The notes beneath the pieces are model-generated. The model was not told where the DNA came from. It saw only the letters and a list, made by a program, of their open reading frames with translations, and searched no databases. A DNA stretch of 64,000 nt from Escherichia phage kaset: the sequence record PV245935.1. One strand, written 5' to 3'. This document shows, piece after piece, positions 31,670 to 52,341 of this stretch. A program made the translations under genes and the position numbers. Within the stretch, counting starts at the first letter, position 1; each line of letters opens with the position of its first letter.

Positions 31670-32530
31670 TTAAAACTCTTCTGCGTCGGTCGGAGTTTCA
31701 TTGACAGGACCAGCGGCACCACTTGCTTCTTCCTGCTTGCTGCGGTCAATGTTAACGTTGCCGCCAACTACGTCGTTGTGGAACGCTTTGGCGACTTCGT
31801 ACAGGCCTTTGTCCTGCACCAGACCTTCCAGCTCAAACTTCAGGACGGACCAGGTGTTGCCGTCTTTGGACTGAGACGCAGTACCCATGCGAACGATGTT
31901 CATGAAGGTCGGCGGCATTTTCAGGCCCTGCGGAGTCTGAACTTTCTTCTGCTGCAGCGCGGTCATCAGCATGCGAGACGGCTTGATCATGGAAGAAGTC
32001 AGAGACAGCATTGCGCTACCAAATTCACCAGTTTCTTCGTTCAACAGGATCACAAAGTGGTTACGTGTATCTGCGTAGTAAGGTGATTTCTTCTCGTGCA
32101 CCTTGCCGTTTTCGTCTGGAACAAACACCTTACCGTTGATCTCAACAGCGCGGCCTGCCGCGACTTCTGCATCAACGTGCTCTTTGGTAAATTCACCTTT
32201 AAAGCCTTTATCGTCGGACTCGCGACCGCCCCAAAGGATGAAGGTGCGTTTGAATGCACAAGGGATGATCTGCACGCCTTTCTTGCCGTCATACAATTCA
32301 CCAGTAACGGTATTGTACAACATACCAGCTTTTGCGCCAGGAACGTGTTTTGGATCATCTTCGTCGACCATCGGAGACATCTTTTGCAGTACGACGATAA
32401 AAGGAATGGCATAAGCGTCGGCATCGGCACCTTCAAAACCAGCGCCAAAATCGGTCATATCGACAAAATCAGCCATAGCGGACATCTGGGTGTTTTTCAC
32501 TGCAACTTCGGTAGTTTCTTTCTTAGACAT
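31670..32530 (-). CDS. putative ssDNA-binding protein (acidic C-terminal tail)
   Basis: 286 aa ending in acidic tail ...ETPTDAEEF, as in T7 gp2.5-type SSBs; within replication module. Confidence 0.35.
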   Translation of the reverse strand: MSKKETTEVAVKNTQMSAMADFVDMTDFGAGFEGADADAYAIPFIVVLQKMSPMVDEDDPKHVPGAKAGMLYNTVTGELYDGKKGVQIIPCAFKRTFILWGGRESDDKGFKGEFTKEHVDAEVAAGRAVEINGKVFVPDENGKVHEKKSPYYADTRNHFVILLNEETGEFGSAMLSLTSSMIKPSRMLMTALQQKKVQTPQGLKMPPTFMNIVRMGTASQSKDGNTWSVLKFELEGLVQDKGLYEVAKAFHNDVVGGNVNIDRSKQEEASGAAGPVNETPTDAEEF

Positions 32531-32589: not shown

Positions 32590-33147
32590 TTACTTTTTGC
32601 TTTTAGGCAAGGTTATTTTAGCTTCTTTATACTCAAAGACGCTAATATCTTCACTGACTGGATTACCCGCTTCCAGCTGTTCTTTTACGAATGACTTCAG
32701 TGTAGCAGAATGAACGCCTTGTTTCAACGTGGCTTCAATACCGTCTTCACGCAGCGCGGCAACAATCTCTTGCGCTTGCTCGATTTCTTCGCGACCGAAC
32801 TCAGCCGTGACGCTGGACTTGATCAAGCCGCCGTAACCGTTGTTGACAAGCCAATCGAATACTTTCAATTCATTTTCTTTCTTAATTGAAGCATTGACTT
32901 TTGACTCGACCTTGATTTTGGTCTTGTCTTCAAGCTTGATTTCGGACACGCCAAGCTCATCCATAACGCCAGGAAGCAGAACAGTTTTGATTTCACTGAT
33001 GCGCTGCTTTTGCATATCAGCTTCATCTTCAAGCTCTGTCAAAGCTTCTTGGCGTTCTGCCAATTCCGATACTAAGCGCGCAAGGCGCTCTTGGATGCTC
33101 TCAGGAGCGACCTGCGGCAAATCATCTTCCCAATTAATATTGCTCAT
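32590..33147 (-). CDS. hypothetical replication/recombination-associated protein
   Basis: 185 aa, coiled-coil N-terminus; start lies in copy 1 of a 52-bp tandem duplication. Confidence 0.45.
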   Translation of the reverse strand: MSNINWEDDLPQVAPESIQERLARLVSELAERQEALTELEDEADMQKQRISEIKTVLLPGVMDELGVSEIKLEDKTKIKVESKVNASIKKENELKVFDWLVNNGYGGLIKSSVTAEFGREEIEQAQEIVAALREDGIEATLKQGVHSATLKSFVKEQLEAGNPVSEDISVFEYKEAKITLPKSKK

Positions 33148-35057: not shown

Positions 35058-35476
35058 GACAATTCCTCTAAATACTTAATGATGTGATGAATAGTTCCCT
35101 TCACGATTATCTCACGTTGAACGTCTGCAATATTATAACGCTTTAATTCAATCGAAGGGTGGACTAAATAAAACATCTTCTCAGAATCGACTTTAAGCAA
35201 AACAAATGATGGGTATTTCCAATCATTCCACGAAGAAAGAAAGCTGCACTGACCTTTCTCAAATGCATTTCTGAAAGGTGCAGTGGTAGCCCTTGCAGGC
35301 CACGATTCAAAGAACTTCATTTCAAGCCAAAAGCCGCGCCCTTTCCGGTTGGTGCCGATTACATCCGGCACACCATCACCCGTCATGGATTCGATTCTTT
35401 GAAGCTTCAATACTGATTCCGAATGCTTCTTCAAAGGTACGAATATGTATTTCTGTTCACGGTTGTTTGTTGCCAT
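35054..35476 (-). CDS. VRR-NUC domain nuclease (putative)
   Basis: about 140 aa; GVPDVIG...GFWLEMKF pattern of PD-(D/E)xK VRR-NUC; 5' end overlaps DnaE-like gene so an internal start was chosen. Confidence 0.45.
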   Translation of the reverse strand: MATNNREQKYIFVPLKKHSESVLKLQRIESMTGDGVPDVIGTNRKGRGFWLEMKFFESWPARATTAPFRNAFEKGQCSFLSSWNDWKYPSFVLLKVDSEKMFYLVHPSIELKRYNIADVQREIIVKGTIHHIIKYLEELS

Positions 35477-38360
35477 CTGGATACACCTGTTTGATAACGT
35501 CGACGATGAACATGTCAATGCCTTCAAGTTTGCGACCTTTCATCAGGAAGAATGCACCGTTCCCGACGTTCTCTGCAATGTACTTCCCGTACTTCTGGAA
35601 CTTCTCTGGGCGAATCCTGAAACGCATTGGCGAATCGGTCGAATCGTCTTTGCACATAAGGTCGATGAACTGAGTTTCAAGCTTGTTTCCATACTGGTCA
35701 AACTCTGCGTAGCGGCCATCGGCCTGAAGACCCTTTTTAAGTTTGCCGTGCTTTGTATAAATGCCGCGCTCAAGACGTTTACGGATTCGTGTTGCTTCGT
35801 TCTCGTCTGCCAGCACTTTCTTGGTCAACTTGCCGATTACTATTGCACGCTCATCATCGCCTACTTCCTTCATCTGGCGTATTGAAGCACCGGAAGTAAC
35901 GCCAATCAGATAGGGGTCATTATACGCCCAGCCGAACTTGGTGTGCATCTCTGTAAGGTCGCCGTATTTGACTTCAGCATTGGCCAATGCATCCTTTTGC
36001 TTTTGCGTTAAGGTTCCGGCTTCACGTGCTTCGATATACTTCATCGCCTTCACCATTCCGTACCCTTTAGCGTTCATGATGCCGCCGATTAGCTTTCCGT
36101 TAGCGATGGTCCAGTTCATTGAAGAGTGATCAGGGTCGATTGGCACATAATCCACGCCTTCCTTCGCAAGTTCACGTAATATCGCAATCGTCTGGTCTTC
36201 GTCCTTAGCAGCGCGTAAGCAGGCAGCGGCAAATTCCAACGGGTAGTGTCGTTTAAGCCACAAGGTCCAGTAGGTCACGACCGCGTATGATACGGAGTGT
36301 GACTTGTTAAAGCCCCATGACCCGAACGTCGCCATCGCTTGCCAAAGCTTTCTTGCATCCGCTTCCGGTACGCCGTTATTTATTGCGCCTGCAACGAAGT
36401 CTTCGCCAAGCTTGTTAAAGTATTCCTCACCCTTACGGCCTGACATCGCCTTACGTACAGCGGATGTCTTCGCCCAGTCAAATGAACCAATCTCTTTCAC
36501 CACGGCCATGATTTGCTCTTGGTAAAGAAACACGCCGTAAGTCTCTTTTAAGTACGGCTCAAGCTGCGGCACGTCGTACTCAATCGGCGCACGTCCTGCC
36601 GCGCGTTCAATGTATTTCTGGGCCATACCGGATGACAACGGGCCAGGTCGACCAAGTGCTGTCAGGTTATCGATTTTGTTAAAGTTATCAACGTGCACAA
36701 AGTTGGTTACTGAGCGTACAGCATCGCCTTCGAACTGGAAGATGCCTGACATCTTATTTTCGTTAAGGATGTCAAGGACGCTTTGATCATTGAGCTTGAT
36801 TCCGTACAGCGTTTCAGCATCTATCACGCCAGTATCGGAAATTATTCCGAGTGTGCGGAGGCCCAGCGCATCAAGCTTCAAAAGGTTAAGGTATTCGCTG
36901 TCAGGCTTATCAATTTGCGCAATCCCTTCCGCCGTTACCGTACAGTAATCAGAGATTGGATCATTACACACGATGATTCCCGCTGCGTGAACGCCAGTGT
37001 GGGAAGGGTGAATCTCAAGGTCACCCATGCATCGCGCGGCGTCAGGATATTTCGCCACGAACTCTTGGCCCGTGGTCGTGGTTGCAAAGGTATCCTCCAG
37101 GCCGTGACCATAACGGGCGTCACCGGATGAGTATTCAAGCAATGCGTTTTTAATGTTGGCCGTTTCGTGATAGCCGATGTTGAACTTCTTACCAACCTGA
37201 GCCATTACTGAGTTGGCCTTAAGCGTGTTGATGTTGCCAAGTTTTGCAACGTTCATTTCGCCGTATTTTTCTTTAAGGTAATCAAACACCATATAGCGTT
37301 TGGTATCCTCAAAGTCAATATCAATATCAGGAAGGTCGGCGCGGCTTACGTCGATGAATCGGGCAAACAACAGCTTATACGGGATTGGGTCAACTTCCGT
37401 GATGCCGAGACAATAGCAAACCAGTGAACCAGCCGATGAGCCGCGAGCGGGTCCGACGAGCATTTTTGTCTTTGCGAATCGTACAAGGTCTGCTACCACC
37501 AGAAAGTATGAGTCGAAATCTTTCAGCTGAATCTGGTGAATCTCTTCGTTGAATCGGTCCTCATATTCCTGAGTCCATTCTTTGATGTGGCCTGCCTTGA
37601 GGCGGTACTCCATCCCCTCACGAGCAAGTTTAACCATGTCACCAGCAAGGTGAATAATCGGTGCCTTGCGCAACTTCAGGCCAAGCCCCACGATTCCGTT
37701 TGCGATATCAACAGCATTGGACGTTGCTTGATTCAACTCATCTTCGGTAAGGATTCCTTCAAGCTGTTTTCGCAAGTCTTCCGCGTCAACGATGCAATGC
37801 GGCTTAACTGTGTCGCGAACTTCCCACGCATAAGCAAAGTCGACGTGCTCAGGTGAAGGCATATGGTTGTATCCGGTTAAAACCAGCGGCCTTCCGTTGC
37901 TGCGGTGAGCCAATGCCTGGCGCTTAGCCAAAAGGAACGATGATGGGTTGACGTCTATATAATCGTAGTCCTCTGGCAGCAGCAACTCCACGGCACCGCC
38001 ACAGAATTTAACGACTCCATCGAGCGCCCCGAACTCTGCACGGGTCAGTCCGCCGCGCTGTGTTGCAAGTGTCGTAGCGTTGTAAAAAGATTTCAGGTCA
38101 AGGGCCAATATCCAAGCCTTCGGTTTGAATCCCTTTTTCGGGTCCGCATCAGGGTCAATGATTGGAATCTCCATGCCGAACATAGGCTTGATATCATTCT
38201 TCTGACATTCCTTTTCCCAGCGAACGTGACCCCATGTATTGTTGTCAACTAATGCCGCGACTTCGCAGCCCAACTCTTTGAGCCGTGCTATAATTTCAGG
38301 ATGCCGTCCATATACTTCTTTGAACGTGTAACCGCTGCGAACTCTCAATTGTGGAAACAT
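35457..38360 (-). CDS. dnaE: DNA polymerase III alpha subunit-like replicative polymerase (DnaE family)
   Basis: 967 aa; N-terminal PHP-like region; palm motif GPARGSSAGSLVCYCLGITEVDP. Confidence 0.85.
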   Translation of the reverse strand: MFPQLRVRSGYTFKEVYGRHPEIIARLKELGCEVAALVDNNTWGHVRWEKECQKNDIKPMFGMEIPIIDPDADPKKGFKPKAWILALDLKSFYNATTLATQRGGLTRAEFGALDGVVKFCGGAVELLLPEDYDYIDVNPSSFLLAKRQALAHRSNGRPLVLTGYNHMPSPEHVDFAYAWEVRDTVKPHCIVDAEDLRKQLEGILTEDELNQATSNAVDIANGIVGLGLKLRKAPIIHLAGDMVKLAREGMEYRLKAGHIKEWTQEYEDRFNEEIHQIQLKDFDSYFLVVADLVRFAKTKMLVGPARGSSAGSLVCYCLGITEVDPIPYKLLFARFIDVSRADLPDIDIDFEDTKRYMVFDYLKEKYGEMNVAKLGNINTLKANSVMAQVGKKFNIGYHETANIKNALLEYSSGDARYGHGLEDTFATTTTGQEFVAKYPDAARCMGDLEIHPSHTGVHAAGIIVCNDPISDYCTVTAEGIAQIDKPDSEYLNLLKLDALGLRTLGIISDTGVIDAETLYGIKLNDQSVLDILNENKMSGIFQFEGDAVRSVTNFVHVDNFNKIDNLTALGRPGPLSSGMAQKYIERAAGRAPIEYDVPQLEPYLKETYGVFLYQEQIMAVVKEIGSFDWAKTSAVRKAMSGRKGEEYFNKLGEDFVAGAINNGVPEADARKLWQAMATFGSWGFNKSHSVSYAVVTYWTLWLKRHYPLEFAAACLRAAKDEDQTIAILRELAKEGVDYVPIDPDHSSMNWTIANGKLIGGIMNAKGYGMVKAMKYIEAREAGTLTQKQKDALANAEVKYGDLTEMHTKFGWAYNDPYLIGVTSGASIRQMKEVGDDERAIVIGKLTKKVLADENEATRIRKRLERGIYTKHGKLKKGLQADGRYAEFDQYGNKLETQFIDLMCKDDSTDSPMRFRIRPEKFQKYGKYIAENVGNGAFFLMKGRKLEGIDMFIVDVIKQVYPDGNKQP

Positions 38361-38902
38361 TATTTACTCCATATGTCATATACGCCAATTTGTTGGCAGA
38401 CTTTGTGCAGTAATATTACGTCGTCTAATGCACGGTGCTTCTGTTCATATTTTCCGAAATATAATTCATACAACTCTTGAAGCTTAACTCTTCGGCCAAA
38501 AATAGGCAAGGTTTGCTCGACTGTACAAATGTTTATTTCTGGAAAATTAACATCACCAAGTGTAAGACCTTCGCGCTGTAATGCATAGTCAAGAATGTTT
38601 TTATCAAACGCATGGTTGTGCGCGATAGTTGCATCCGTCTTCTTGAATATTTCTTTTAGCTGCGGAACGAAATGAATAAATGGTGGATTGCACTCAAGGT
38701 CTTCGTTGGTTAATCCGGTAATCTTCGTGATGATTTCTTCAATCACAATTTCAGGATTAATTATGAACTCGAACGTTTCAAGAATCTCTTTGCCGTCCGT
38801 CAACAGGCCTGCAAATTCAATAGGGCGCGGCTGCATTCCAAGCGGCGCTTTCGGGTGCACGGTTAATCCGGTTGTTTCGAAGTCATAAGGGAGAAATAAC
38901 AC
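38360..38902 (-). CDS. DnaQ-like 3'-5' exonuclease (DEDDh)
   Basis: 180 aa; Exo I YDFETTG, Exo II IAHNHAFD, Exo III HRALDDV; 1-nt overlap with DnaE-like gene start. Confidence 0.8.
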   Translation of the reverse strand: MLFLPYDFETTGLTVHPKAPLGMQPRPIEFAGLLTDGKEILETFEFIINPEIVIEEIITKITGLTNEDLECNPPFIHFVPQLKEIFKKTDATIAHNHAFDKNILDYALQREGLTLGDVNFPEINICTVEQTLPIFGRRVKLQELYELYFGKYEQKHRALDDVILLHKVCQQIGVYDIWSK

Positions 38903-38913
38903 ATTGGCCTCCT

Positions 38914-38940
38914 ACAAAAAGGCCGCCCATTAGGACGGCC
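38914..38940 (-). terminator. hairpin plus U-tract (attenuator/terminator) upstream of exonuclease gene
   Basis: on minus strand GGCCGUCC-UAAU-GGGCGGCC then UUUUUG, then AGGAGG RBS. Confidence 0.35.
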
Positions 38941-38956
38941 ACAGATTCAAGATTCG

Positions 38957-39508
38957 TTATGCAGTGTACGGAGTGCCGTCTTGATTCAACCGCACGATGA
39001 ATTTAAGGTCTACACCGATGATTTCACGCGTATCAAAGATCACATAGTTGTAACGACGCTGACCAGCAATATTTGGGTTGGTGTGAGAGTCAGTTACGAC
39101 TTCCTGCGCAACCTGAATGCCTTCTTCTTTAAAGAACTTACGCCATTCAGCAAGTTCAGCGACAGTCACGTGCATACCAAGATGGCTGACCTGATTATCG
39201 TGCGCATCGAGCATGTCGATGTTTTCGTTGATCCAGTTGCAACCTTTTGTGTAGTCAAGAATTTCAAGTTCAAGAGGCTTGCCAGCGCCGCCATCGGTGC
39301 CGTTGCCAGCCTGATAGTTGAAGCGCAAGTCAGCTTCATTGGTGCAATCGTCGCGACGACCTTTAAATTCATCAGCTTCAAATACGCGACCAGTAGCAAC
39401 AACATGATCATGGAACCATTCTGTCAGGCCGATTTTGGCCAGAAAATCCTGTGCACGCTGAGCATCTGGAATTGACAGGGCGATTTGTTCAATTTTAAAG
39501 TGTGGCAT
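38957..39508 (-). CDS. hypothetical protein (possible VOC/glyoxalase-like fold)
   Basis: 183 aa; tentative fold assignment from His/Glu spacing only. Confidence 0.3.
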   Translation of the reverse strand: MPHFKIEQIALSIPDAQRAQDFLAKIGLTEWFHDHVVATGRVFEADEFKGRRDDCTNEADLRFNYQAGNGTDGGAGKPLELEILDYTKGCNWINENIDMLDAHDNQVSHLGMHVTVAELAEWRKFFKEEGIQVAQEVVTDSHTNPNIAGQRRYNYVIFDTREIIGVDLKFIVRLNQDGTPYTA

Positions 39509-39528
39509 TTTGTTTCCTTAATTAAATA

Positions 39529-39744
39529 TTATTGATTAATTACTGTGTTGTCTTCGTCCTGTTTCTTTTCAGGAGCGGGTGTGACAACTTCAAATTTAGG
39601 TTTGGGCAATTCACCTTTAGCACCTGGGACTTCAACGACAATCTTTTTGTCAGGCTCAACAGGATTTGGAACTTCAAATTTGATCGTGTATCCTAATACA
39701 ACAAGAAGCACTAAACCGATTACCGCTACCCAGGCTTTGTTCAT
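39529..39744 (-). CDS. small membrane-anchored protein
   Basis: 71 aa; N-terminal TM helix AWVAVIGLVLLVVLGY then Pro/Lys/Glu-rich tail. Confidence 0.4.
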   Translation of the reverse strand: MNKAWVAVIGLVLLVVLGYTIKFEVPNPVEPDKKIVVEVPGAKGELPKPKFEVVTPAPEKKQDEDNTVINQ

Positions 39745-39747
39745 GAT

Positions 39748-40431
39748 TTATTTCCCAAATGGAATATCAGTACCAGACATAAAGCGCCATGCGCCCGTAA
39801 TTAAGATATGGCGAATGAAGTCAGCAATTACTTGCGGCTCAGTCTCCAATCCATTCATCAACGCCTTTTTCTGGTATTCAGCAGCATACTCAGGAGTCCA
39901 GCCGCGAGTCGCGCAAACAGCATCTTCAATCTGTTTAGACATACCAGTGCCGCGCAACTTGTTAGGACTAATAGAGAATACCGTGATCCCGTATTTAGGC
40001 GTAAGTTCGTGGGCCATCTGCTTACTGATCATAAGCGCAGCGGCCTTGGAAGCATTATAACACAAGCTGGACGTCATAGGAATATGCGCAGCGTTGGAAA
40101 CGATATTGATCACAAAACCTTTGTTGTCGATAAGACTTTTCAGTGTCGCCTGAGTCGTGTTAACGAAAGAGAAAGCGTTGGTATGCATAACGCGGTTAAA
40201 TTCTTCGTAGTTGACATCTTCAAACCAGTTGTTGGAGTTTACGCCAGCACAGTTGATCAAGCCTTCTACATCATATGGGCTTAAAATTTCTTTCATCTGT
40301 TTAGCGTCGCGGACGTCATATCCGTATGCTGAATCGATGCCAAGCACGTTATGACCGTAAGCGCCAAGGGTGTCAAAAATAGATTTACCAAGACCAGAAT
40401 TGGAACCTGTTACAACAATTACTTTTTTCAT
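39748..40431 (-). CDS. short-chain dehydrogenase/reductase (SDR)
   Basis: 227 aa; Rossmann motif VVTGSNSGLGKS, NCAGV, catalytic YNASK (YxxxK). Confidence 0.75.
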   Translation of the reverse strand: MKKVIVVTGSNSGLGKSIFDTLGAYGHNVLGIDSAYGYDVRDAKQMKEILSPYDVEGLINCAGVNSNNWFEDVNYEEFNRVMHTNAFSFVNTTQATLKSLIDNKGFVINIVSNAAHIPMTSSLCYNASKAAALMISKQMAHELTPKYGITVFSISPNKLRGTGMSKQIEDAVCATRGWTPEYAAEYQKKALMNGLETEPQVIADFIRHILITGAWRFMSGTDIPFGK

Positions 40432-40452
40432 TTATTTATCCTTTTTGGACTT

Positions 40453-40486
40453 CGTTTCGATGAGATAAATATAACTCATCGAAACG
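40453..40486. promoter_or_regulatory. perfect 12-bp inverted repeat with AT-rich loop
   Basis: CGTTTCGATGAG-ataaatataa-CTCATCGAAACG between HAD and SDR genes. Confidence 0.5.
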
Positions 40487-40496
40487 CACAAGTAAA

Positions 40497-41369
40497 CTAT
40501 TTATTGAAATTAATATTGTGGGTGTTGACGAGACGTTCACACATGGCGCTGTAAACACCATCATCGTGTATAGAGTCTTCGTGCTTCAGGCCGCTGATTG
40601 CGAAGCGTGTAAGCTTGACAATCTTAAGCTCGAACAGATGCCACATGTGGTAGTCTTCCGGCGTTTTCAACGTTACGCCATTAGGGAAAAGCACCTGCAT
40701 AACCTGGCCAACCATCACGGCGTTATCGCCATAGACAGCGTTGCGCTCACGGAAGGTTGCCGCCATTGCATCAAGAATATCGGCGGCAGTGGCCGGAGAT
40801 TGTTCAATTTCCACAGCCTTAGTCTCTTCTTGCCCTGTTGCGCTTGGATCAATTGCTAATTGTTGCACCACTTCACCTGCCTTGCAAAGATTAAATGTAA
40901 AAGCGATTTTATTTTGAGCAACGGAATTATAATACAATGCTTCATCTTGCATCCGCGCGAGCACGTCTTGTCGGTCGTCGAATACATTGATGATTCGATA
41001 ATCGCCGTGCCGCAATGCGTGCGATAGCCATGCAGATTTCATAATAGTTGATGGACGTTTGTCGCCATAGTCTCTCATCTTGATTGTAAATTCATCAAAA
41101 GGAAAAACATTGTCCAGACGTTCAAAAGTCACTTGTCTGTATTTTTCTGGCCTTGCAGTCCAATATTCAACCGCCTCACCGCGAAGAGATGCCGACTCTA
41201 CTGCTGATGCAATGTGAGGATAGAACTGATCATAACCAATACCGCTGTGATAGTCATCATAGTCTGACAACGGACCTGCCACCTTGATGCGGTCTAAGCG
41301 CCAACGGTCATCAAACAGCGTTCCGTCAAGGTCGAATACGTTTAAGATTTCGCTGTTTTTAATGCTCAT
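40497..41369 (-). CDS. HAD-superfamily phosphatase-like protein with C-terminal extension
   Basis: 290 aa; motif I FDLDGTLFDD, later VFDDRQDV; C-terminal ~130 aa of unknown function. Confidence 0.5.
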   Translation of the reverse strand: MSIKNSEILNVFDLDGTLFDDRWRLDRIKVAGPLSDYDDYHSGIGYDQFYPHIASAVESASLRGEAVEYWTARPEKYRQVTFERLDNVFPFDEFTIKMRDYGDKRPSTIMKSAWLSHALRHGDYRIINVFDDRQDVLARMQDEALYYNSVAQNKIAFTFNLCKAGEVVQQLAIDPSATGQEETKAVEIEQSPATAADILDAMAATFRERNAVYGDNAVMVGQVMQVLFPNGVTLKTPEDYHMWHLFELKIVKLTRFAISGLKHEDSIHDDGVYSAMCERLVNTHNINFNK

Positions 41370-42211
41370 CCTTTTGATACTCCATCTTTAGCGACTGGAT
41401 TGTTGGTGATTGGCATCGCACTCCAAAACTGGATGCGCAACTCTTCTTGCTGTGCCGTGGTATCCATCCAATCACGATACCAAGGGCAATGTGCTTTACC
41501 GTGACGGGGAAATGCGCACTTACCCATACCGATGCATTGCGGCTGTAGTAAAGGATTAGCCCAAGGGTGCACCTTGAGGACTTCCGCAACCATTGCACGA
41601 AATACTTCTTGATACTCGCCTTGAGTGCGCGTGCACAAGCGGTTTGACGCCATCTGCTGCAGCGTGCGCAAGTTGAACTTTGCCATGATATGCGTTTGCA
41701 TATTAGAAGGCAACACGGCACGTGCATCCTGAATCTCTGCGCCAGCCGCGCGAAGTTCTTGGTATAGGGCGTCAATGGTTGCCATTGCATCATCCCACTT
41801 CTCTGCCAGCACACTTCTTTTTTCAGAGTCCCAGTATCCTTCTTCATCCTGGTCGAAAAAGTCTTTTTTACCAAGATCATCTAAACTATCAAAATCACCA
41901 TCCCTTTCAAATGCCTTCGGACGAATTGCATCAAACGCAGACGACTCCTGAGCGCGGCTAGTGCGTTCTTGATATGCGCCTGTGCGTGTGCGCACCATCT
42001 GATGGGTCATGTTCTTTGAAACATCAGTGATGTCAAAGATATAGTCCACAAAGTCAAAGGGCGACTTGATTGTATCAAGCATGTAGCGCCAGTGCTCTTG
42101 CTTCTCTGATTCTGTCATCTCAGAGACAGGCTTGCCAGTCATGCGCGTGTTCTTTGTTTCCAGCAAAAGGTCAAGTGCATCTTGGGTGTATCGAATTAAT
42201 TCAACTTTCAT
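41366..42211 (-). CDS. thyX: ThyX-like flavin-dependent thymidylate synthase (variant RTR motif)
   Basis: 281 aa; VRTRTGAYQERTSR aligns with the ThyX signature RHR-x7/8-S but with His replaced by Thr. Confidence 0.55.
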   Translation of the reverse strand: MKVELIRYTQDALDLLLETKNTRMTGKPVSEMTESEKQEHWRYMLDTIKSPFDFVDYIFDITDVSKNMTHQMVRTRTGAYQERTSRAQESSAFDAIRPKAFERDGDFDSLDDLGKKDFFDQDEEGYWDSEKRSVLAEKWDDAMATIDALYQELRAAGAEIQDARAVLPSNMQTHIMAKFNLRTLQQMASNRLCTRTQGEYQEVFRAMVAEVLKVHPWANPLLQPQCIGMGKCAFPRHGKAHCPWYRDWMDTTAQQEELRIQFWSAMPITNNPVAKDGVSKG

Positions 42212-42225
42212 TTTAATTATTCCTA

Positions 42226-42672
42226 TTAACGGTAATTCACTAATTGCTGATCACCAGAGAAGGTGCAATGATAAACGAATTGTGCGTTGTAAAGCAACTG
42301 AAAACTTTTCTTTGGTTCACTATTAGCACTCATCGATGTGAATACTTCTGCACCGGAACGGTTTTCACCAATCAGATTGATAAAGCCGCCAGTTGAACGA
42401 GGTTGAACGAAAGTGAAACGTTGCATCCACGGAGTCCGGTTGGCACCTTTACCCGTGAATCCTTGAATCTGAATATTCAGACCTTCTTGCTCATTCACAC
42501 CGATGTAAGTGGTAATCTTCGCACCAGTCGTTGCTGCGGTCTTGCCGTCCATCGCTTCGCAATCGTAAACAGCGATTGAATCGGAAGTACGGATGGCAGC
42601 TTCAGTCGCTTCCATATACATGGTGCCGAGAATAGCAGTTGCGGCAAGCGCGATTCCAGTGATTCGTTTCAT
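42226..42672 (-). CDS. secreted protein of unknown function
   Basis: 148 aa; signal peptide MKRITGIALAATAILGTMYMEATEAA. Confidence 0.5.
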   Translation of the reverse strand: MKRITGIALAATAILGTMYMEATEAAIRTSDSIAVYDCEAMDGKTAATTGAKITTYIGVNEQEGLNIQIQGFTGKGANRTPWMQRFTFVQPRSTGGFINLIGENRSGAEVFTSMSANSEPKKSFQLLYNAQFVYHCTFSGDQQLVNYR

Positions 42673-42689
42673 TTCGTTTCCTCTATGAG

Positions 42690-42730
42690 TTCTGCTTCAA
42701 TGATTAAAGTATACGCCCATTGAAGCAGAA
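42690..42730. promoter_or_regulatory. perfect 13-bp inverted repeat
   Basis: TTCTGCTTCAATG-N15-CATTGAAGCAGAA; loop contains TATACT; directly upstream of secreted-protein gene. Confidence 0.5.
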
Positions 42731-42736
42731 AGCAAA

Positions 42737-43732
42737 TTATTTATTGGCAATATAAGCAAATTTTTGATAGTTATTTGCTTTGATGAGTTTTTCAACTTCA
42801 ACAAGGTCATGAGCGACGTCATCAAGCAAAATGTTGCGCCAGGTAGCGAATCGACCAACACTAAACACGTTCAAATCCATAGTCAGCTGCAGGAGTAGGG
42901 CGTGTCGCAAGTCTTTCGGAATGTCGACAATCTTGCCATATTTCTGGTCGACCTTTTCAACTTCTTCAAGAGCAATGTCACTCCATGAAAGGCCAAAGGC
43001 CGTCAACACTTCGTCGACTTCTGCGCGAAGCTTTATGTCACGGTAACGAGTGATGCCGCCAGCGGCTTCAACTGCAGCTTCACTTACGCTGACCAAAGGA
43101 ATTGTTTCAATGATAAGCGTGTCACCAGTAATTGATGCGCGGTAAGTTCTGACTGAGTAGTCAGGGAAGTAAATTGTTTGATACAACTCACACTTACGTT
43201 TAATCTTAAAGCGGTAAACACGAATGTTTGCTTTATCAAATGAGAAATCAAGCTTTTGATCAATCCCAGCAAGCTTCAGCATGACTGGCAGCGGCGATGT
43301 GTTGATGATTGGCGTCTCGCTATAGCCGCAAAGAGTATCAACCGGAGTATTAAAGAATATGCGGTCACCCAGTTTGTCGACAAGCTGATCATAAAAGTCA
43401 TCAGGCGCAATATAACGCGTTGCAGTTTTAAGCTTCATGATTGAACGGCTGCCAAACTGATTGGTGACCTTCATGGAATACATATTGGCAAGGTTAATTG
43501 GGCAATGGTCGTGGTAGTAGTTGCCGCGAAAATACACAGCCTTGTCAACTGTCACGGCCTTAAAGGGGATTCCGGTAATACGGCTTACTTCTTCGCCACG
43601 GAAGCGTAGCAACGCCTTGTGCTGTTGCGCCCGTTCCCCTGCTTCGTACACAATAGAGTTCGGGAAGTGACACGCTGTGATAAGTCCTGCCAGTCCGCCG
43701 CCGATAATCATTACAGGTTGTTTCATGTTCAT
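42737..43732 (-). CDS. FAD/NAD(P)-binding oxidoreductase
   Basis: 331 aa; N-terminal dinucleotide-binding motif VMIIGGGLAGL. Confidence 0.5.
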   Translation of the reverse strand: MNMKQPVMIIGGGLAGLITACHFPNSIVYEAGERAQQHKALLRFRGEEVSRITGIPFKAVTVDKAVYFRGNYYHDHCPINLANMYSMKVTNQFGSRSIMKLKTATRYIAPDDFYDQLVDKLGDRIFFNTPVDTLCGYSETPIINTSPLPVMLKLAGIDQKLDFSFDKANIRVYRFKIKRKCELYQTIYFPDYSVRTYRASITGDTLIIETIPLVSVSEAAVEAAGGITRYRDIKLRAEVDEVLTAFGLSWSDIALEEVEKVDQKYGKIVDIPKDLRHALLLQLTMDLNVFSVGRFATWRNILLDDVAHDLVEVEKLIKANNYQKFAYIANK

Positions 43733-43810: not shown

Positions 43811-43837
43811 AAAAAAGACCCACAACAAGTGTGGGTC
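43811..43837 (-). terminator. Rho-independent terminator after KAE-rich protein gene
   Basis: minus strand GACCCACAcuugUUGUGGGUC then UUUUUUC. Confidence 0.55.
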
Positions 43838-43864: not shown

Positions 43865-44710
43865 TTATTCCGCTTGATCACCGTCTTCGGCATCGTCGTT
43901 GGATTCAACATCGACAAACTCGATGTGGCCCATCTCTTCCAGCTTGCTCAGGTAGGAGCGAACGGAAGCGCCAAACAGTTGATCTTTAACTTTTTCGCCC
44001 AGCTCATCGATAGACTGCGCCACGCCAACTTCGCCTTCTTTGATCGCCGCTAGAACGCGTCCACGGGTGGAATGCTCTTGCGGCTGGCTCAGGCCATTGC
44101 CAGTGTAGATGAAGTGGGTTGCTTTTGCACGACGCTGACCGTTTGCCTTTTTAGCAGCCTTACGTTCTGCGATGGCTTTGCGACGTTCTTCAGCTTCTTG
44201 CTTACGCTGTTCTTTCTGCTGTTCTGCAGCTTCTTTTGCCGCAATCTTAGCAGCTTCACGCTCTGCCTTGCGTTTCGCTTTAGCTTCTTCTTTGGCCTTC
44301 TCTTTTTCGGCCTTCGCTGCAGCACGGGCTTGATCACGCTCTGCTTTCTTAGCAGCAGCTTGTTCAGCTTTCAGGCGCTTGGCTTCTTCTTTAGCCTTTG
44401 CCTTTTCGATTTCTTTCGCTGCTTTAGCGGCTTCACGCTCTGCTTTCTTAGCAGCAGCCTTTTCTGCGCGCTCTTTGGCCTTCTTAGCTGCTTCTTCAGC
44501 ACGCTTCTGAGCCTTCTCATCAGCAGCCTGCTTGCGTTTCAGTGCAGCTTCTTCACGCTTGGCTTGTTTTTCCTGCTCACGCTTCTGGCGTTTTTCTTCG
44601 GCTTCTTTCTTTTTAGCCAGGCGTTTTTCTTCAGCCACGCGACGACGTTCTGCTGCAGCTGCTTGTTTTTCTTCTTTAGATAATACTTTGATTGCTTCGG
44701 CCATGTTCAC
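43865..44710 (-). CDS. Lys/Ala/Glu-rich helical-repeat protein with C-terminal winged-helix-like domain
   Basis: 281 aa; ~200 aa of KAE/R-rich low-complexity helix (TolA domain II-like) then ~80 aa globular C-terminus. Confidence 0.55.
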   Translation of the reverse strand: MNMAEAIKVLSKEEKQAAAAERRRVAEEKRLAKKKEAEEKRQKREQEKQAKREEAALKRKQAADEKAQKRAEEAAKKAKERAEKAAAKKAEREAAKAAKEIEKAKAKEEAKRLKAEQAAAKKAERDQARAAAKAEKEKAKEEAKAKRKAEREAAKIAAKEAAEQQKEQRKQEAEERRKAIAERKAAKKANGQRRAKATHFIYTGNGLSQPQEHSTRGRVLAAIKEGEVGVAQSIDELGEKVKDQLFGASVRSYLSKLEEMGHIEFVDVESNDDAEDGDQAE

Positions 44711-46534: not shown

Positions 46535-47617
46535 ATGGCTAGTTTAAGAGAAGAAGCAAAAATAATCGAAGAGTTTTTGACGGAACTCCAAAGAGGCATT
46601 CCAGAAGATGAACGCGTCATGACTGTGTTTGCGCCTGAAGCAACGGTGCAGACCGACGAGCGCGGCAAAAAGATTAACAGCAGCTTCTGGCCTAAGCCTT
46701 GGAAGCTTGGCAAGCCGCTGATGCAACATCAGAACGGTTACGCCTGCATAAGTTCAATGCGCAAGTCTCCCAACCCAAAGACAGGCGAGATGCGATACTG
46801 GCGCACGGAATCGGCTTTCGGTCATGGCATGGCAATGATGGTCGACGACATCGGACACGGTAAAGGGTCAAAGGGCGATTTAGATTTGGAGTTCTTTTTC
46901 GAGCGTCTGAAGCCAACCGTTATCGTTGAGACTTCACCGAACAACCATCAGCTGTGGTACTTCTTTAAAGAACCGATTGACCATCTTATTCAGTTCAAAG
47001 CATTCCTTGGGTCTTTCGTAAACATGGTACTCAAGAAGGGCGGCGACAACACGATTAAAGACGTGACGCGCGTGGGCCGTGTTCCTGGGTGCATCAACAA
47101 TAAGCGTGTGACTCACGACGGCCCCTATAAATATGTCGATGAGAACGGCGACCCGTTCCGCTGCCGACTTGTTCATGCAGACTATTCTTTGCGCTACACA
47201 ATCGAAGAGATTTGCCAAGCATTCGGTTTCCACGTCGTTATGCCGCAAAAGCGTGAAATTCAAATCGACGTTGACGAATACAAATATGACGCTGTTTGGT
47301 ATAAGATAGCCCAGCAAATCCTTGCGCGCAATAAGATGGGCGAAGGGTCCGATGGCGATGTGGTTGAAAACATGTCAGGTAAATGCCGCATCATCTGTCC
47401 TTGGGGTGAAGAGCACACCAACGGCGACCCATACGGCGCTTATTTTCGCGGCCCAATCCCTGGCGCTGAACATGAATTCGTTTTCGGTTGCGCTCACGAC
47501 TGTCACCGGAAAGGGGAAGGCAAGAAAGGCTGGACCGCTTTTGTTGAAGCAGTAGTCATGCCTTATATTGAGAATCAACTTGATATGATAAATCGTCGCG
47601 CAGGTGGCATAAAATAG
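46535..47617 (+). CDS. primase-polymerase-like protein (AEP family) with C-terminal zinc-binding region
   Basis: 360 aa; MVDDIGHG (DxD-like), NHQLWYF (His motif), Cys/His cluster CRIICPWGEEH...CAHDCH. Confidence 0.5.
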   Translation: MASLREEAKIIEEFLTELQRGIPEDERVMTVFAPEATVQTDERGKKINSSFWPKPWKLGKPLMQHQNGYACISSMRKSPNPKTGEMRYWRTESAFGHGMAMMVDDIGHGKGSKGDLDLEFFFERLKPTVIVETSPNNHQLWYFFKEPIDHLIQFKAFLGSFVNMVLKKGGDNTIKDVTRVGRVPGCINNKRVTHDGPYKYVDENGDPFRCRLVHADYSLRYTIEEICQAFGFHVVMPQKREIQIDVDEYKYDAVWYKIAQQILARNKMGEGSDGDVVENMSGKCRIICPWGEEHTNGDPYGAYFRGPIPGAEHEFVFGCAHDCHRKGEGKKGWTAFVEAVVMPYIENQLDMINRRAGGIK

Positions 47618-47664
47618 TTTGCTTTTATTTTTCTAGCAACTATAATCATTTTATGAACTGAAGC

Positions 47665-47822
47665 AGAGGTGATTTATGAAAAGCGAAGAATTGAATATCG
47701 AGCTTGAAGGTCTGTTAAAGTCGTTAGAACCTAAGCCCGTAGAGCTTCCCACCCTTGAAGGTGTCATGGCTCACCACCAATCGGCTGCGGCCAAACACTA
47801 CTATGAATTTGTTAAGGAATAA
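47665..47822 (+). CDS. small hypothetical protein (52 aa)
   Basis: ATG 47665 with AGAGGTG RBS; below ORF-track size cutoff. Confidence 0.3.
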
Positions 47823-47824
47823 AA

Positions 47825-48115
47825 ATGAACGAACCAAAAATGATGACTCCTGAAGAAGCGCAAAAACTTCGCGTGGAGAACGAGCTTAAGCTTGTCAATG
47901 AAATCCTTCCTCTGTTTAAAGGCTATGCGGTTGAAGAAGTCGTTGGCGCAATCCTTAATGTGTCGACGCACGTGGCGATGAATCTGAATGCAGAGCGTTT
48001 CAATACTTTGCTGACGATTAACAACTTTACTGTCAGTGCAACGTTTACCGTTGAGCCAGTGAATTTTGAAGAAGCTGCAGCCGCGATTCAACAACAGCGA
48101 GATCAAGAGGTGTAG
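47825..48115 (+). CDS. hypothetical protein
   Basis: 96 aa; AAGGAA RBS. Confidence 0.4.
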   Translation: MNEPKMMTPEEAQKLRVENELKLVNEILPLFKGYAVEEVVGAILNVSTHVAMNLNAERFNTLLTINNFTVSATFTVEPVNFEEAAAAIQQQRDQEV

Positions 48116-48116
48116 C

Positions 48117-48380
48117 ATGGGTGCTTTCCGCAACGAGTTCGTTTGGAACGTCACAAGCAGTCTTTCGACTTGTCCTAACTGTGCAAGTGATGTGATCAAG
48201 GTGCGGCAGCATCGCAATGCAGAGGAAGGTGCCTGGGAGGACGGCGACCTTGTAGAGTGCCAGTGTTGCTCTCACGAAGGCGTGGTGGAGCTTTACGCCG
48301 GAGAAGGTTGTCCACCAGCAGAACGTACAGCACGCGTTGAATGGGATGCGACAGACTCCATTGGTGATCCTCAACAGTAA
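48117..48380 (+). CDS. small zinc-ribbon protein
   Basis: 88 aa from ATG 48117 (RBS AGAGGTG); CPNC ... CQCC. Confidence 0.4.
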   Translation: MGAFRNEFVWNVTSSLSTCPNCASDVIKVRQHRNAEEGAWEDGDLVECQCCSHEGVVELYAGEGCPPAERTARVEWDATDSIGDPQQ

Positions 48381-48398
48381 ATTTAGGTATAGATACAT

Positions 48399-48503
48399 AT
48401 GAAAGCCGTAAAGAAATACACATTAATCATTTCCCTTGTTATCATCCTGGGGCTATTATATGTATTGGATATGGCATATTATTTGGCAGGGGTGAGTAAA
48501 TGA
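48399..48503 (+). CDS. small hydrophobic peptide (34 aa)
   Basis: MKAVKKYTLIISLVIILGLLYVLDMAYYLAGVSK; stop overlaps next ATG (ATGA); weak RBS. Confidence 0.3.
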   Translation: MKAVKKYTLIISLVIILGLLYVLDMAYYLAGVSK

Positions 48504-48790
48504 ATATTGTAATTCTTTATGGTGAGAATATCAGCGATGACGACATCGAAGTTGCCGTTGATGTTTACGGTATCGATGAGGTGAAACGTGTTGAAGAAAT
48601 TAATGGCGCAAATCTTAACGAGATTGTCAAAGAAGCTGGTTGCCCTTCGGAAGAGATTCTGGTGGTTACTAACGATGACCTGTCTTCTATGGATTGTTTG
48701 CGCCGCATCTTCACCGATTGCCAATACCTTCATGCTGTTCAGTCAGTAAACAAATTGAGAAAGACATACGCTGACCAATTTCCTTGCTGA
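48500..48790 (+). CDS. hypothetical protein
   Basis: 96 aa acidic protein. Confidence 0.4.
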   Translation: MNIVILYGENISDDDIEVAVDVYGIDEVKRVEEINGANLNEIVKEAGCPSEEILVVTNDDLSSMDCLRRIFTDCQYLHAVQSVNKLRKTYADQFPC

Positions 48791-48840
48791 TAGTTCACCA
48801 GTTATATTGCTTTAAACTGAGTTTTACTATATTAATATAC

Positions 48841-48866
48841 AACGCCAGATTTCTGGCGTTTATTTA
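48841..48866 (+). terminator. Rho-independent terminator
   Basis: AACGCCAGAtttcTGGCGTT followed by TATTTA. Confidence 0.5.
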
Positions 48867-48926
48867 CCGCACCCTGAAAGGATATATCCATGCAACAATA
48901 TAACAAAGCCGTATCAGGAGGATTAA

Positions 48927-50597
48927 ATGTCAATTGAACATGACAATCTTCCAGAGGATACAGGTGATGAATTTGGTGCAATCTTTGACGAAATTCAAGA
49001 TGCTGGTGTTTCAGAAGAAATGCAAGCGGCAGAGCAGCAAGGCACCAGAGCTAAAATAAGCCTTCAGCACAAGGCTGTTGAGAAAGATGCAGAGCGCATG
49101 GAATGCTACGGTGAAGAAGACTTGGTTGAAAGAGCACGTTTGCTCGCCTCACTTCAGGTAATCAAGTTCCCTCACTACAAACCGACGAAAGATGATTTTG
49201 TTCTTCAGGCGGACCGGACGAGTGACATGAACCGTTATGCGGTTTTCGACGCGTTGTTTGATAAGGGAAGCGGCATCGTCCCATTCCCTCACAAAGATAC
49301 TTTTCGTGGACGCTTAGTCGACCATCGCGGCGAAACATTCACCGACCGGACATTGGAAGTCACAGAGATAGTTGCCGCTGTCGACGCAGCAGGTCTGTCC
49401 AACCCAAACTCACGTCAGGTCGCTCAATCCTATAAGGAATGGGCCATGCGTTATCAGCGCGACGACCTGATGGACTTCTTCTACAAGAAGCTGCCTGAAT
49501 GGGACGGTACTGCGCGCATTGAAAAATACCTTATCGAGCTATTCCGACCGTTCGATACAGAGTTAAACCGACAAATCGGTGTGTATTTTTGGCTATCGCT
49601 CTATAACCGCCTGACCAATCCTGGCTGTCAAGCGCCAATCTCCATTGCGCTCATCGGCGGCCAGAACGCAGGGAAGAGTTATTTTAGTAAGCTGCTTTGC
49701 GAAGCTATTATGAACGACCGCCACGCAACACCGATTCCGTTGAACTTGGCCGCGCAAAACTTCAACCCGTTCTTGCGAGCTATTACGGGTCGCTCAATTA
49801 TCGCGAACGTTGGCGAGATGACAGGCTTTAAAAAGGCTGACATCGAAAACATGAAAGCATTCCTGACTAAGACGGAAGATGACCTGGACTTCAAATTTGA
49901 AGATACGCAGGTTAAACCACGCCAGTGGATTGCTATCATGGACGGCAACGAATACGCAGGCATGCAGCGTGACGATACGGGCAACCGTCGTGTGTATCCT
50001 ATCTTTGTTGGCCAACTCGCCGACAAGGACGGGCAACCGAACTGGTCTAAAGACTTCCAAGCTGACCTTTCCACTTTGAAAGAAGACGTTTGGCAGCTGA
50101 TGGCTGAGTGCGCTGCGTGGATGGAGAAGCACGGCGAAGCAGGTTACAACGCCTTTGTTGGTGAAACATCTCGTATGCTTACTGAGTTCAGTAAGAACGA
50201 AATGGAACGTGCGCGCGGCGTTATCCGTGATGAGATGGTCGACAACGACCTTGTTGAAGTCATCATCACCGCGCCTTATGACCGACATCACAGCGGACGC
50301 TGGCACATCACCAGTGGGGCAATCGCTATGGGATTCAGAGCTAAGTGCGGCAAGTCGCCTTTCTCACGTACCCTTGCGCCGCACATGTCGAAGCTTGGAT
50401 TTGAGCCTGCAACCTATCGCAACCAGCGTGGCTACTTTACGCCGCTGATTAAGAATGAAGCAGGGGAATACATTTCTGACTTGATGACCATCTTAGCGTA
50501 TCTTATTCGCGACGAGTCTGACCCTGAAGATATTGAATTCTTGAAGAAGGTTATTGAACGCAAACGTTCTTTAGGAAGAGATAAGGATGAATTCTGA
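48927..50597 (+). CDS. VirE/D5-like primase-associated P-loop NTPase (putative replicative helicase)
   Basis: 556 aa; Walker A IALIGGQNAGKSY; follows primase gene. Confidence 0.55.
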   Translation: MSIEHDNLPEDTGDEFGAIFDEIQDAGVSEEMQAAEQQGTRAKISLQHKAVEKDAERMECYGEEDLVERARLLASLQVIKFPHYKPTKDDFVLQADRTSDMNRYAVFDALFDKGSGIVPFPHKDTFRGRLVDHRGETFTDRTLEVTEIVAAVDAAGLSNPNSRQVAQSYKEWAMRYQRDDLMDFFYKKLPEWDGTARIEKYLIELFRPFDTELNRQIGVYFWLSLYNRLTNPGCQAPISIALIGGQNAGKSYFSKLLCEAIMNDRHATPIPLNLAAQNFNPFLRAITGRSIIANVGEMTGFKKADIENMKAFLTKTEDDLDFKFEDTQVKPRQWIAIMDGNEYAGMQRDDTGNRRVYPIFVGQLADKDGQPNWSKDFQADLSTLKEDVWQLMAECAAWMEKHGEAGYNAFVGETSRMLTEFSKNEMERARGVIRDEMVDNDLVEVIITAPYDRHHSGRWHITSGAIAMGFRAKCGKSPFSRTLAPHMSKLGFEPATYRNQRGYFTPLIKNEAGEYISDLMTILAYLIRDESDPEDIEFLKKVIERKRSLGRDKDEF

Positions 50598-51244: not shown

Positions 51245-51283
51245 TTATCATCAAAATATTTGCTTTTCTGACGAGGTGATATT

Positions 51284-51958: not shown

Positions 51959-51965
51959 GTTGAAG

Positions 51966-52339: not shown

Positions 52340-52341
52340 CC

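Follow-up and report, generated by a model that had tools for sequence, protein, structure and literature searches.

The 64,000-nt stretch of Escherichia phage kaset DNA analyzed here (sequence record PV245935.1; the whole stretch is called the window) carries, at 38957–43732 on the minus strand, a cluster of enzyme genes among its replication genes. We propose that the flavoenzyme, the ThyX-like protein and the HAD/DUF6378 protein encoded there, joined in this phage by an SDR and a VOC-like protein, form a biosynthetic module for sugar-type thymidine hypermodification of the phage DNA, and we give this reading a probability of about 0.5. By analogy with Pbunavirus, the modification would be a sugar or sugar alcohol on approximately one quarter of the thymidines, in TG context. 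An initial annotation of this DNA had offered two readings of the cluster, base modification and folate/pterin recycling in support of ThyX. The first has gained indirect support from the conserved gene order, the chemistry reported for Pbunavirus, the restriction resistance of Wifcevirus phages, and the relief of palindrome avoidance at TG. The genes of the module and the two replication genes that follow them are:

42737–43732, minus strand: flavoenzyme, 331 aa; phrog_4828, homologue of PB1 gp68; GxGxxG at residues 11–16
41366–42211, minus strand: ThyX-like protein, 281 aa; Pfam Thy1, 2.7e-30
40497–41369, minus strand: HAD + DUF6378 protein, whole gene, 290 aa; HAD_PNKP, 5.4e-8; ~110 additional C-terminal residues
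40845–41369, minus strand: HAD phosphatase domain (PNKP phosphatase type), approximately residues 1–175 of the 290-aa protein
40497–40820, minus strand: DUF6378 four-helix-bundle domain, approximately residues 184–290 of the 290-aa protein
39748–40431, minus strand: classical SDR, 227 aa; adh_short, 5.9e-31; TGxxxGxG and YNASK
38957–39508, minus strand: VOC-like protein, 183 aa; Glyoxalase_4, E = 0.004, 17.9 bits, below the cut-off of 27
38360–38902, minus strand: DnaQ-like 3'-5' exonuclease; RNase_T, 1.6e-21
35457–38360, minus strand: DnaE-type polymerase (Pol) III alpha, directly after the exonuclease gene

Eighty IMG/VR loci with a flavoenzyme homologue (39–99% identity) were fetched, and their six-frame open reading frames (ORFs) were searched with the window proteins. 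The 56 loci that carried the flavoenzyme and reached the exonuclease or polymerase gene were counted. In every one of them the genes had the same strand and the same order: flavoenzyme, ThyX, HAD/DUF6378, SDR and VOC where present, exonuclease, Pol III alpha. ThyX and the C-terminal (DUF6378) domain were each found in 56/56 loci, and a HAD domain next to ThyX was detected by blastp in 47/56, a count probably limited by the sensitivity of blastp. The SDR was present in 39 loci and the VOC-like protein in 40 (both in 39, VOC alone in 1, neither in 16). Because the SDR always occurs with VOC, the two are a co-inherited pair that makes up an optional extension of the module. Median gaps were −2 bp between the C-terminal domain and the SDR, 29 bp between SDR and VOC, 41 bp between ThyX and HAD, and 3 bp between exonuclease and polymerase; in the window the ThyX-like stop and the start of the HAD gene share 4 bases. 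The recurrence of this order in all of the related loci that we examined puts the grouping far outside what chance would produce.

The order is also kept outside the closest relatives. In phage PB1 it runs Dda helicase, Lys/Ala/Glu-rich protein, flavoenzyme gp68, six small ORFs, ThyX gp61, one small ORF, HAD with the C-terminal domain gp59, exonuclease, and Pol III alpha; Pbunavirus phages have neither SDR nor VOC genes. About half of the loci are contigs of 43–57 kb without the Lindbergviridae Dda and Lys/Ala/Glu-rich genes, and since so many loci lack those genes, we concluded that the cassette crosses phage groups. A search of 185,579 species-representative genomes for the flavoenzyme family gave six occurrences, all on contigs of metagenome-assembled genomes 3–59 kb long. 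All six contigs carry a ThyX-like gene, which directly follows the flavoenzyme gene in 6/6, and 4/6 carry phage replication genes; the four reaching far enough (identity 29–38%) keep the full order. A Cronobacter podovirus of 42 kb has overlapping genes for the flavoenzyme, ThyX and a HAD-DUF3310 protein, and downstream of them come the HNH, exonuclease and Pol III alpha genes. In a 206-kb Rhizobium jumbo phage the flavoenzyme, ThyX and a HAD + DUF6378 fusion lie within ~7 kb with other genes interspersed. The exonuclease and Pol III alpha genes are directly downstream in almost every locus that reaches them; in the Rhizobium jumbo phage they are apart from the module. Module-bearing viral contigs numbered at least 491 confirmed matches. 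The genes of the module are kept in fixed order across very distant phages.

The window is 92–96% identical at the DNA level to the Wifcevirus genomes Mansfield, WFH, ECML-117 and BASEL Bas98-101, and it belongs to Wifcevirus, a group of E. coli myoviruses. Phages of this group resist restriction by no known mechanism (PMC11990801). The relevant chemistry has been shown by others in Pbunavirus, where the PB1 flavoenzyme gp68 is 41% identical to that of the window. Liquid chromatography–mass spectrometry revealed novel thymidine derivatives in Pbunavirus F8 (362 Da) and 14-1 (390 Da), amounting to about one quarter of T and located in a TG motif (PMC12191111). They were described, in a 2025 preprint on END nucleases, as sugar or sugar-alcohol thymidine, and the authors noted that Pbunavirus has none of the previously known modification genes; F8 DNA was cut by EcoRI, HindIII, XbaI, DraI and BsaI (PMC12191111). 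Both masses can be reached by simple arithmetic from 5-hydroxymethyldeoxyuridine (5-hmdU, 258): addition of a tetritol (122) with loss of water (18) gives 362, and addition of a pentose (150) with loss of water (18) gives 390. Our literature search turned up no gene assignment for the Pbunavirus modification, and searches on Wifcevirus DNA digests and on the function of DUF6378, DUF1599 and DUF3310 gave no answer.

The ThyX-like protein matched Pfam PF02511 (Thy1) with 106 bits against a cut-off of 24.8, and its family profile matched the M. tuberculosis ThyX in the PDB at 7.3e-21; the score for the NCBIfam equivalog TIGR02170 was 75.2, under the cut-off of 87.9. The window protein has VRTRTGAYQERTSRA in place of RHR...S.RY. 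We compared residues in 43 module-linked ThyX sequences using T. maritima (Tm) numbering. The equivalents of Tm R78, R80, R90, R147, R174 and Q75, which bind deoxyuridine monophosphate (dUMP), were invariant in 43/43. The middle position of RHR was never His (T in 34, S in 4, N in 3, Q in 2). The equivalent of His53 was Phe in 41 and Ala in 2, that of Tyr91 was V, A, F, T or I and Tyr in 0/43, and that of Ser88 was T, S or A. In T. maritima ThyX, Ser88 and Tyr91 are conserved, and the substitution Y91A slows the flavin carbinolamine reaction more than 100-fold (PMC8316439). His53 is also conserved; it stacks on the reduced flavin or folate and hydrogen-bonds to Tyr91, holding an 'OFF' state (PMC11940539). 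As judged from this residue pattern, the module ThyX retains the dUMP site and has consistently lost two paired residues by which flavin, folate and methylene chemistry is controlled. Compared with canonical ThyX (TM0449; Rv2754c), the module protein has the same fold and family (Thy1) and the same dUMP phosphate- and uracil-binding residues, whereas canonical ThyX has RHR, His53 and Tyr91 and the module ThyX has R-[T/S/N/Q]-R, Phe or Ala, and a non-Tyr residue. Unlike canonical ThyX, it is always encoded beside a separate flavoenzyme of 300–330 aa.

Following the report of a TG-motif modification in Pbunavirus, the 64 6-bp palindromes were divided into those with TG/CA and the others. Palindromes of this length are strongly avoided in the window: 16/64 are absent, among them AGCGCT (0 observed vs ~20 expected), CCGCGG (0 vs 13) and GGCGCC (0 vs 18). 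The observed/expected ratio (O/E) was 0.90 for TG/CA palindromes, with 0/16 absent, and 0.66 for the others, with 16/48 absent (Fisher p = 0.0066 for absence; Mann-Whitney p = 0.0013). The split held over Markov orders 1–4 (0.86–1.11 vs 0.66–0.70), and non-palindromic 6-mers had ratios of ~1.0 in both TG/CA classes. Among palindromes with two A/T positions the ratios were 0.92 with TG/CA and 0.44 without. T7 and T1, taken as unmodified, served as controls and showed no relief (TG/CA vs others, 0.44 vs 0.45 and 0.51 vs 0.72, respectively). In contrast to these controls, relief was seen in Pbunavirus fragments (0.98 vs 0.70), in 46 related loci totaling 824 kb (0.90 vs 0.63, p = 0.001), and in Microbacterium phage Ajin (0.98 vs 0.58). 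The window therefore shares the palindrome pattern of Pbunavirus, which is the pattern expected if T in TG is shielded. The EcoP1 site AGACC contains no TG/CA and the EcoKI site AACN6GTGC does, and the pattern fits sensitivity to EcoP1 and resistance to EcoKI. We had considered that the avoidance follows an AT-content gradient and that the DNA is unmodified, since T7 shows the same gradient; the TG/CA split changed that conclusion.

Other features of site content in the window were an O/E of 0.38 for GATC and 0.55 for CCGG, and the lack of 6/8 all-G/C palindromes; HindIII sites (50) and TGATCA (46) were not depleted. The BASEL S2 table lists 36 EcoRI sites for Bas98, which disagrees with our own count of GAATTC, 13 in the first 50 kb of Bas98 and 11 in the window.

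The flavoenzyme had no Pfam match at E ≤ 0.1 and no NCBIfam match. Its homologues form 1915 protein clusters and occur in 361 phage records, including all PB1-like Pseudomonas phages. An AlphaFold2 model built from 44 homologues had a mean pLDDT of 86.7, and the predicted structure is a flavin adenine dinucleotide (FAD) Rossmann fold of the UDP-galactopyranose mutase (UGM), PPOX or amine-oxidase type. Searches of the PDB by phmmer and with the family profile found no UGM and nothing past the dinucleotide-binding motif. The corresponding protein of phage Mansfield is labeled UDP-galactopyranose mutase; because there is no solved relative by sequence, that label reflects fold-level resemblance only. 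We rejected the identification as a true UGM, which had no sequence-family support, with PPOX almost equally similar in fold. In comparison with UGM (Glf), of which 4dsg is ~140 residues longer, the phage family is essentially confined to phages and is always linked to ThyX, not to glycan clusters.

The HAD domain matched Pfam HAD_PNKP (PF25109) with 33.5 bits (cut-off 27.6) and phrog_4889. Direct reading of its sequence showed DLDGT at residues 13–17 (D13, D15 and T17 forming DxDxT) and FDDRQD, motifs that assign it, as a predicted enzyme, to the HAD-superfamily phosphatases of the PNKP phosphatase type. The C-terminal domain is Pfam DUF6378, which was matched by 36/44 family members (best E, 4.5e-6), the window copy itself giving no match. 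DUF6378 is also a stand-alone protein of ~95–120 aa in many related phages, and the large number of polar residues that are invariant in it hints at a site for ligand binding or catalysis. We considered and dropped an assignment as an NTP pyrophosphatase, there being no sequence or fold match to MazG, dUTPase_2 or HD proteins. By hhalign, DUF6378 showed no relation to the DUF3310 domain that is fused to HAD in Cronobacter phage Ss1.

The SDR has the cofactor motif TGSNSGLG at residues 8–15 and YNASK, as in classical SDRs. Its closest PDB structures are FabG (1.6e-12), and all 14 PDB matches were FabG or generic SDRs. NCBIfam matches (glucose dehydrogenase, DhbA and FabG types) were all far under their cut-offs, with no FolM- or PTR1-type family among the best 25. 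In the VOC-like family the residues Q8, W31, D34, Y65, E82, N91, H109, Q135, T139, H142 and N144 are invariant. Thus E82 and H109 are kept, but the first canonical metal-ligand position is occupied by Gln8, and the Pfam match was under the cut-off. The family profile matched no VOC structure in the PDB by sequence.

A parallel gene set was found in actinophages. In Microbacterium phage Ajin a run of six genes, most of them overlapping, leads straight up to a split DnaE (record 37769-41085): a 287-aa FAD-binding oxidoreductase, a HAD phosphatase, an SDR, a VOC-like protein, a DUF6378-like protein and a small ORF. Its SDR (gp57) is 34% identical to the window SDR, its VOC-like protein (gp58) is 31% identical to that of the window (E 8e-16), and its DUF6378-like protein has a C-terminus 51% identical to the DUF6378-type domain of the window. 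A ThyX-like gene lies 8 kb further on, and a membrane glycosyltransferase gene shortly after DnaE. In mycobacteriophage Troll4 (cluster D), positions 46552–54812 encode a FAD protein, a HAD nucleotidase, a methyltransferase, a small protein, an SDR (gp65, 29% identical to the window SDR), DnaE and a long ThyX. The ThyX proteins of Ajin and Troll4 have the same non-canonical (non-RHR) motif as those of the module. Actinophages with the parallel set may also carry modified DNA. The FAD proteins Ajin gp55 and Troll4 gp61 were tried as homologues of the flavoenzyme and rejected, since hhalign and hmmsearch found only the dinucleotide-binding motif; a BFVD fold search with these proteins gave only weak matches without names.

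With conservation, linkage, residue pattern and palindrome signature observed, we infer a role for every enzyme of the module as follows. The ThyX-like enzyme would bind dUMP and install a C5 one-carbon unit. Because it is without the His53/Tyr91 pair and the RHR histidine, its product may be 5-hydroxymethyl-dUMP or another activated C5-methylene species, instead of or besides thymidine monophosphate (dTMP). The UGM/PPOX-like flavoenzyme and the HAD phosphatase would then prepare or attach a sugar-derived moiety, a step that could consist of flavin-dependent sugar chemistry and dephosphorylation of a sugar phosphate or intermediate; both HAD phosphatases and a true UGM are known from pathways that glycosylate phage DNA (PMC13326640). 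The SDR and VOC-like pair might tailor the sugar by reduction, epimerization or isomerization and would be dispensable in Pbunavirus-type lineages. The final product would shield TG-containing sites from restriction.

Several observations weigh against this proposal. The palindrome test had only two negative controls; palindromes containing GT/AC or AA/TT are also little avoided; and the TG-less EcoRI and EcoRV sites are under-represented in the window (11 vs ~27 and 5 vs ~20 expected, respectively). Because these TG-less enzymes fail to restrict Wifcevirus in vivo, a modification of TG only cannot explain the whole phenotype. No glycosyl or alkyl transferase, 5-HMUDK DNA-base kinase or aGPT-Pplase is annotated in the close relatives Mansfield and Bas98. 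The module has no obvious reader of TG context in DNA and no recognizable DNA-level transferase; it resembles a set of nucleotide-pool enzymes, and context-dependent modification usually needs a step at the DNA level. Because F8 has a sugar alcohol and Pbunavirus has no SDR or VOC, the SDR is not needed for sugar-alcohol reduction. Finally, the FAD proteins of the actinophage sets correspond to the flavoenzyme in position and size only.

The chief alternative, which is somewhat unlikely, is that the cluster serves ordinary nucleotide supply. The ThyX-like protein would then be a divergent dTMP synthase for the DnaE replicase, with the flavoenzyme as its redox or one-carbon partner (a 'two-component ThyX'); HAD/DUF6378, SDR and VOC would condition nucleotide pools, and other genes would modify the DNA. 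The invariance of all dUMP-binding residues, the strong Thy1 match and the reach of the profile to a PDB ThyX at 7e-21 suit such a synthase, as do the constant position of the module beside polymerase genes and the lack of a visible DNA-level transferase within it. The changed residues line the flavin/folate/NADPH site, fitting hand-over to a partner flavoprotein. The initial annotation had seen no ThyA, DHFR, RNR or dNMP kinase, and this agrees with the annotations of Mansfield and Bas98, where none of these, and no other thymidylate synthase, is listed. However, ThyX works in many phages and cells with no such partner flavoenzyme, using NADPH to reduce the FAD that it carries itself. Translational coupling of a dTMP synthase to a phosphatase would be self-defeating if dTMP were the substrate of the phosphatase, the SDR-VOC pair has no obvious place in dTMP synthesis, and the modification genes of Pbunavirus, the resistance of Wifcevirus and the TG palindrome pattern would be left unexplained. 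A bolder form of the hypermodification proposal, which we regard as distinctly unlikely, makes the ThyX-like proteins the founders of a functionally new class of dUMP C5 transferases that depend on flavin. Together with the flavoenzyme and HAD/DUF6378, they would assemble a deoxyuridylate bearing a sugar or alditol ahead of replication. The DnaE/epsilon pair that is always adjacent would be specialized for incorporating this nucleotide and would in this way give the TG context, in place of a DNA-level transferase.

The folate/pterin-recycling reading of the initial annotation, with the SDR as a FolM-like reductase and the flavoproteins regenerating the folate cofactor for ThyX, is very improbable. 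The SDRs do include a number of pterin reductases (FolM, PTR1, sepiapterin reductase, DHPR), and the SDR is syntenic with ThyX in 39/56 loci. But ThyX oxidizes NADPH via FAD and releases tetrahydrofolate rather than dihydrofolate, so that no DHFR-like re-reduction is needed and nothing is left to re-reduce. Moreover, the SDR is FabG-like, its best matches being FabG, glucose dehydrogenase and DhbA types with all NCBIfam scores under cut-off and FolM and PTR1 not in the best 25; it is missing in Pbunavirus and in 16/56 loci, lineages that keep ThyX; and its constant partner is a VOC-like protein, a type with no role in folate recycling. Sugar or small-molecule metabolism unrelated to DNA, such as envelope or O-antigen remodeling or synthesis of a nucleoside-derived inhibitor, is quite improbable as well. 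Sugar-tailoring enzymes typically belong to the classes represented here (UGM-like fold, SDR, HAD and VOC), PolB of polyoxin biosynthesis offers a ThyX-like analogy for the inhibitor variant, and both the signal-peptide and membrane proteins inside the cluster of this phage and the membrane glycosyltransferase shortly after DnaE in Ajin would be in keeping with it. The secreted and membrane proteins, however, are not conserved with the module; the module stays fixed by the replicase across unrelated hosts with differing envelopes, including Gram-positive ones; and its obligate link to a ThyX that binds dUMP points to nucleotides as the substrate.

Hypermodification of thymidine, as proposed here, can be compared with known phage systems. 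Phages M6, ViI, PaMx11, SP10 and PhiW-14 use a ThyA-type dUMP hydroxymethylase, a 5-HMUDK kinase, aGPT-Pplase transferases and tailoring enzymes (PMC8989533, PMC5889632). Their pathways share with the module the likely end result, a bulky C5-methyl group on some thymidines that blocks restriction, and the logic of a C5 one-carbon enzyme and tailoring enzymes placed among replication genes. They differ in using the ThyA family, to which the ThyX family of the module is unrelated, and in the appended group, which is an amino acid or polyamine in M6/ViI-type pathways and a sugar or sugar alcohol in Pbunavirus. Among the cluster proteins, searches of Pfam and PHROG revealed no ThyA-family hydroxymethylase, 5-hmdU DNA kinase, aGPT-Pplase, radical SAM protein or pyridoxal-phosphate decarboxylase, and none is annotated in Mansfield or Bas98, although not all of the small window ORFs were scanned. 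The glycosylation systems of RB69 and DLP3 (arabinosyl-5-hydroxycytosine), RL38J1 (galactosyl/glucosyl-5hoC) and base J-like glucosyl-hmU likewise decorate pyrimidines with sugar (PMC13326640). In them a thymidylate-synthase homologue makes the attachment point, and HAD phosphatases and, in RL38J1, UDP-galactopyranose mutase prepare the donor (PMC13326640). They differ from the module in relying on ThyA homologues, in having cytosine as their target base, and in their recognizable glycosyltransferases, sugar kinases and nucleotidyltransferases (PMC13326640), of which the module showed none. Clusters for DNA hypermodification are thus already known; what would be new here is the ThyX base, the phage-restricted flavoenzyme, DUF6378, and the absence of kinase/transferase pairs.

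The cluster provides a short, testable gene list for the Pbunavirus modification, common to Pbunavirus, Wifcevirus and at least 491 viral contigs. If the hypermodification proposal is true, the restriction resistance of Wifcevirus in the BASEL collection would be explained, a ThyX-based, flavin-rich route would be added to the ThyA-based ones, and the combination of flavoenzyme, non-RHR ThyX and DUF6378 would be a genomic marker that predicts modified genomes. Such a marker matters for sequencing, cloning, phage engineering, and the choice of therapeutic phages against hosts with modification-dependent nucleases. Should the ThyX-like proteins be a new class of C5 transferases, the cassette would mark as hypermodified hundreds of uncultured phages, Wifcevirus, and relatives infecting Serratia, Xanthomonas and Pantoea, and possibly also cluster D mycobacteriophages and Microbacterium phages. 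If modification is the wrong explanation, the module is still a deeply conserved, uncharacterized partner system of thymidylate synthase.

The remaining features in and around the cluster are:

42226–42672, minus strand: 148-aa protein; signal-like hydrophobic N-terminus (hydropathy)
39529–39744, minus strand: 71-aa protein; one N-terminal transmembrane-like helix (Kyte-Doolittle maximum 2.22, residues 5–23)
43817–43837, minus strand: terminator-like hairpin on the upstream side of the cluster, following the Lys/Ala/Glu-rich gene; 8-bp stem with 5 GC pairs, T7 tail
38921–38940, minus strand: terminator-like hairpin on the downstream side of the cluster, separating the VOC-like gene from the exonuclease gene; 8-bp stem with 7 GC pairs, T5 tail

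An ORF check found all seven of the leftward ORFs that the initial annotation had placed between 38957 and 43732, on the minus strand and with the same coordinates, and most of its labels were borne out by family searches (Pfam, PHROG and NCBIfam). The 148-aa protein had no Pfam, PHROG or NCBIfam match and was seen solely in three Wifcevirus loci (L009–L011); the 71-aa protein is annotated in Mansfield and Bas98 and had no homologue in related loci outside Wifcevirus. Because both were found only in Wifcevirus, we consider them inserts outside the conserved module. The two terminator-like hairpins that bracket the cluster coincide in place with terminators annotated in phage Mansfield.

The gap between flavoenzyme and ThyX varies (median 361 bp) and serves as an insertion point for small accessory genes. 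In the window this slot (42211–42737) holds the 148-aa protein of Wifcevirus; unrelated small genes are gathered there in other phages: PB1 has six small ORFs at this place, and the Rhizobium phage has a Seg-like homing endonuclease. A second slot, after the HAD gene and ahead of the exonuclease gene, is occupied by an HNH endonuclease in Cronobacter phage Ss1. Outside the window, such slots were noted at 7948–9172 in locus L002, 8271–8717 in L006 and 6909–7559 in L007. In Bas98 (L090) the genes for the small membrane protein and the SDR are separated by an additional 55-aa ORF (39661–39828), which is missing in the window (~39744–39748). The accessory content of the cluster therefore differs within the genus.

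Upstream of the cluster, the 281-aa Lys/Ala/Glu-rich protein (43865–44710, minus strand) consists almost wholly of Lys/Ala/Glu repeats in its first ~190 residues. It has a conserved C-terminal domain, with 46% identity to PB1 gp69 over residues 151–273 and a match to phrog_4765. The protein resembles histone-H1/AlgP-like DNA-binding proteins and could bear on genome protection or nucleoid handling. On the downstream side, the MazG-like ORF that the initial annotation had mentioned is present at 30504–31097, with a Pfam MazG match (E = 0.004) under the cut-off. Two further proteins of the replication region matched recently defined Pam3-type families: Pfam Pam3_Gp34 (4e-86) for the one at 31670–32530 on the minus strand, and DUF7307/Pam3 gp33-like (2e-37) for the one at 32590–33147 on the same strand. 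Between the MazG-like gene and the replication genes lies an embedded i-spanin/o-spanin pair (31094–31612 and 31180–31458, minus strand; labels from Mansfield and Bas98), distant from the endolysin gene at 27915–28559.

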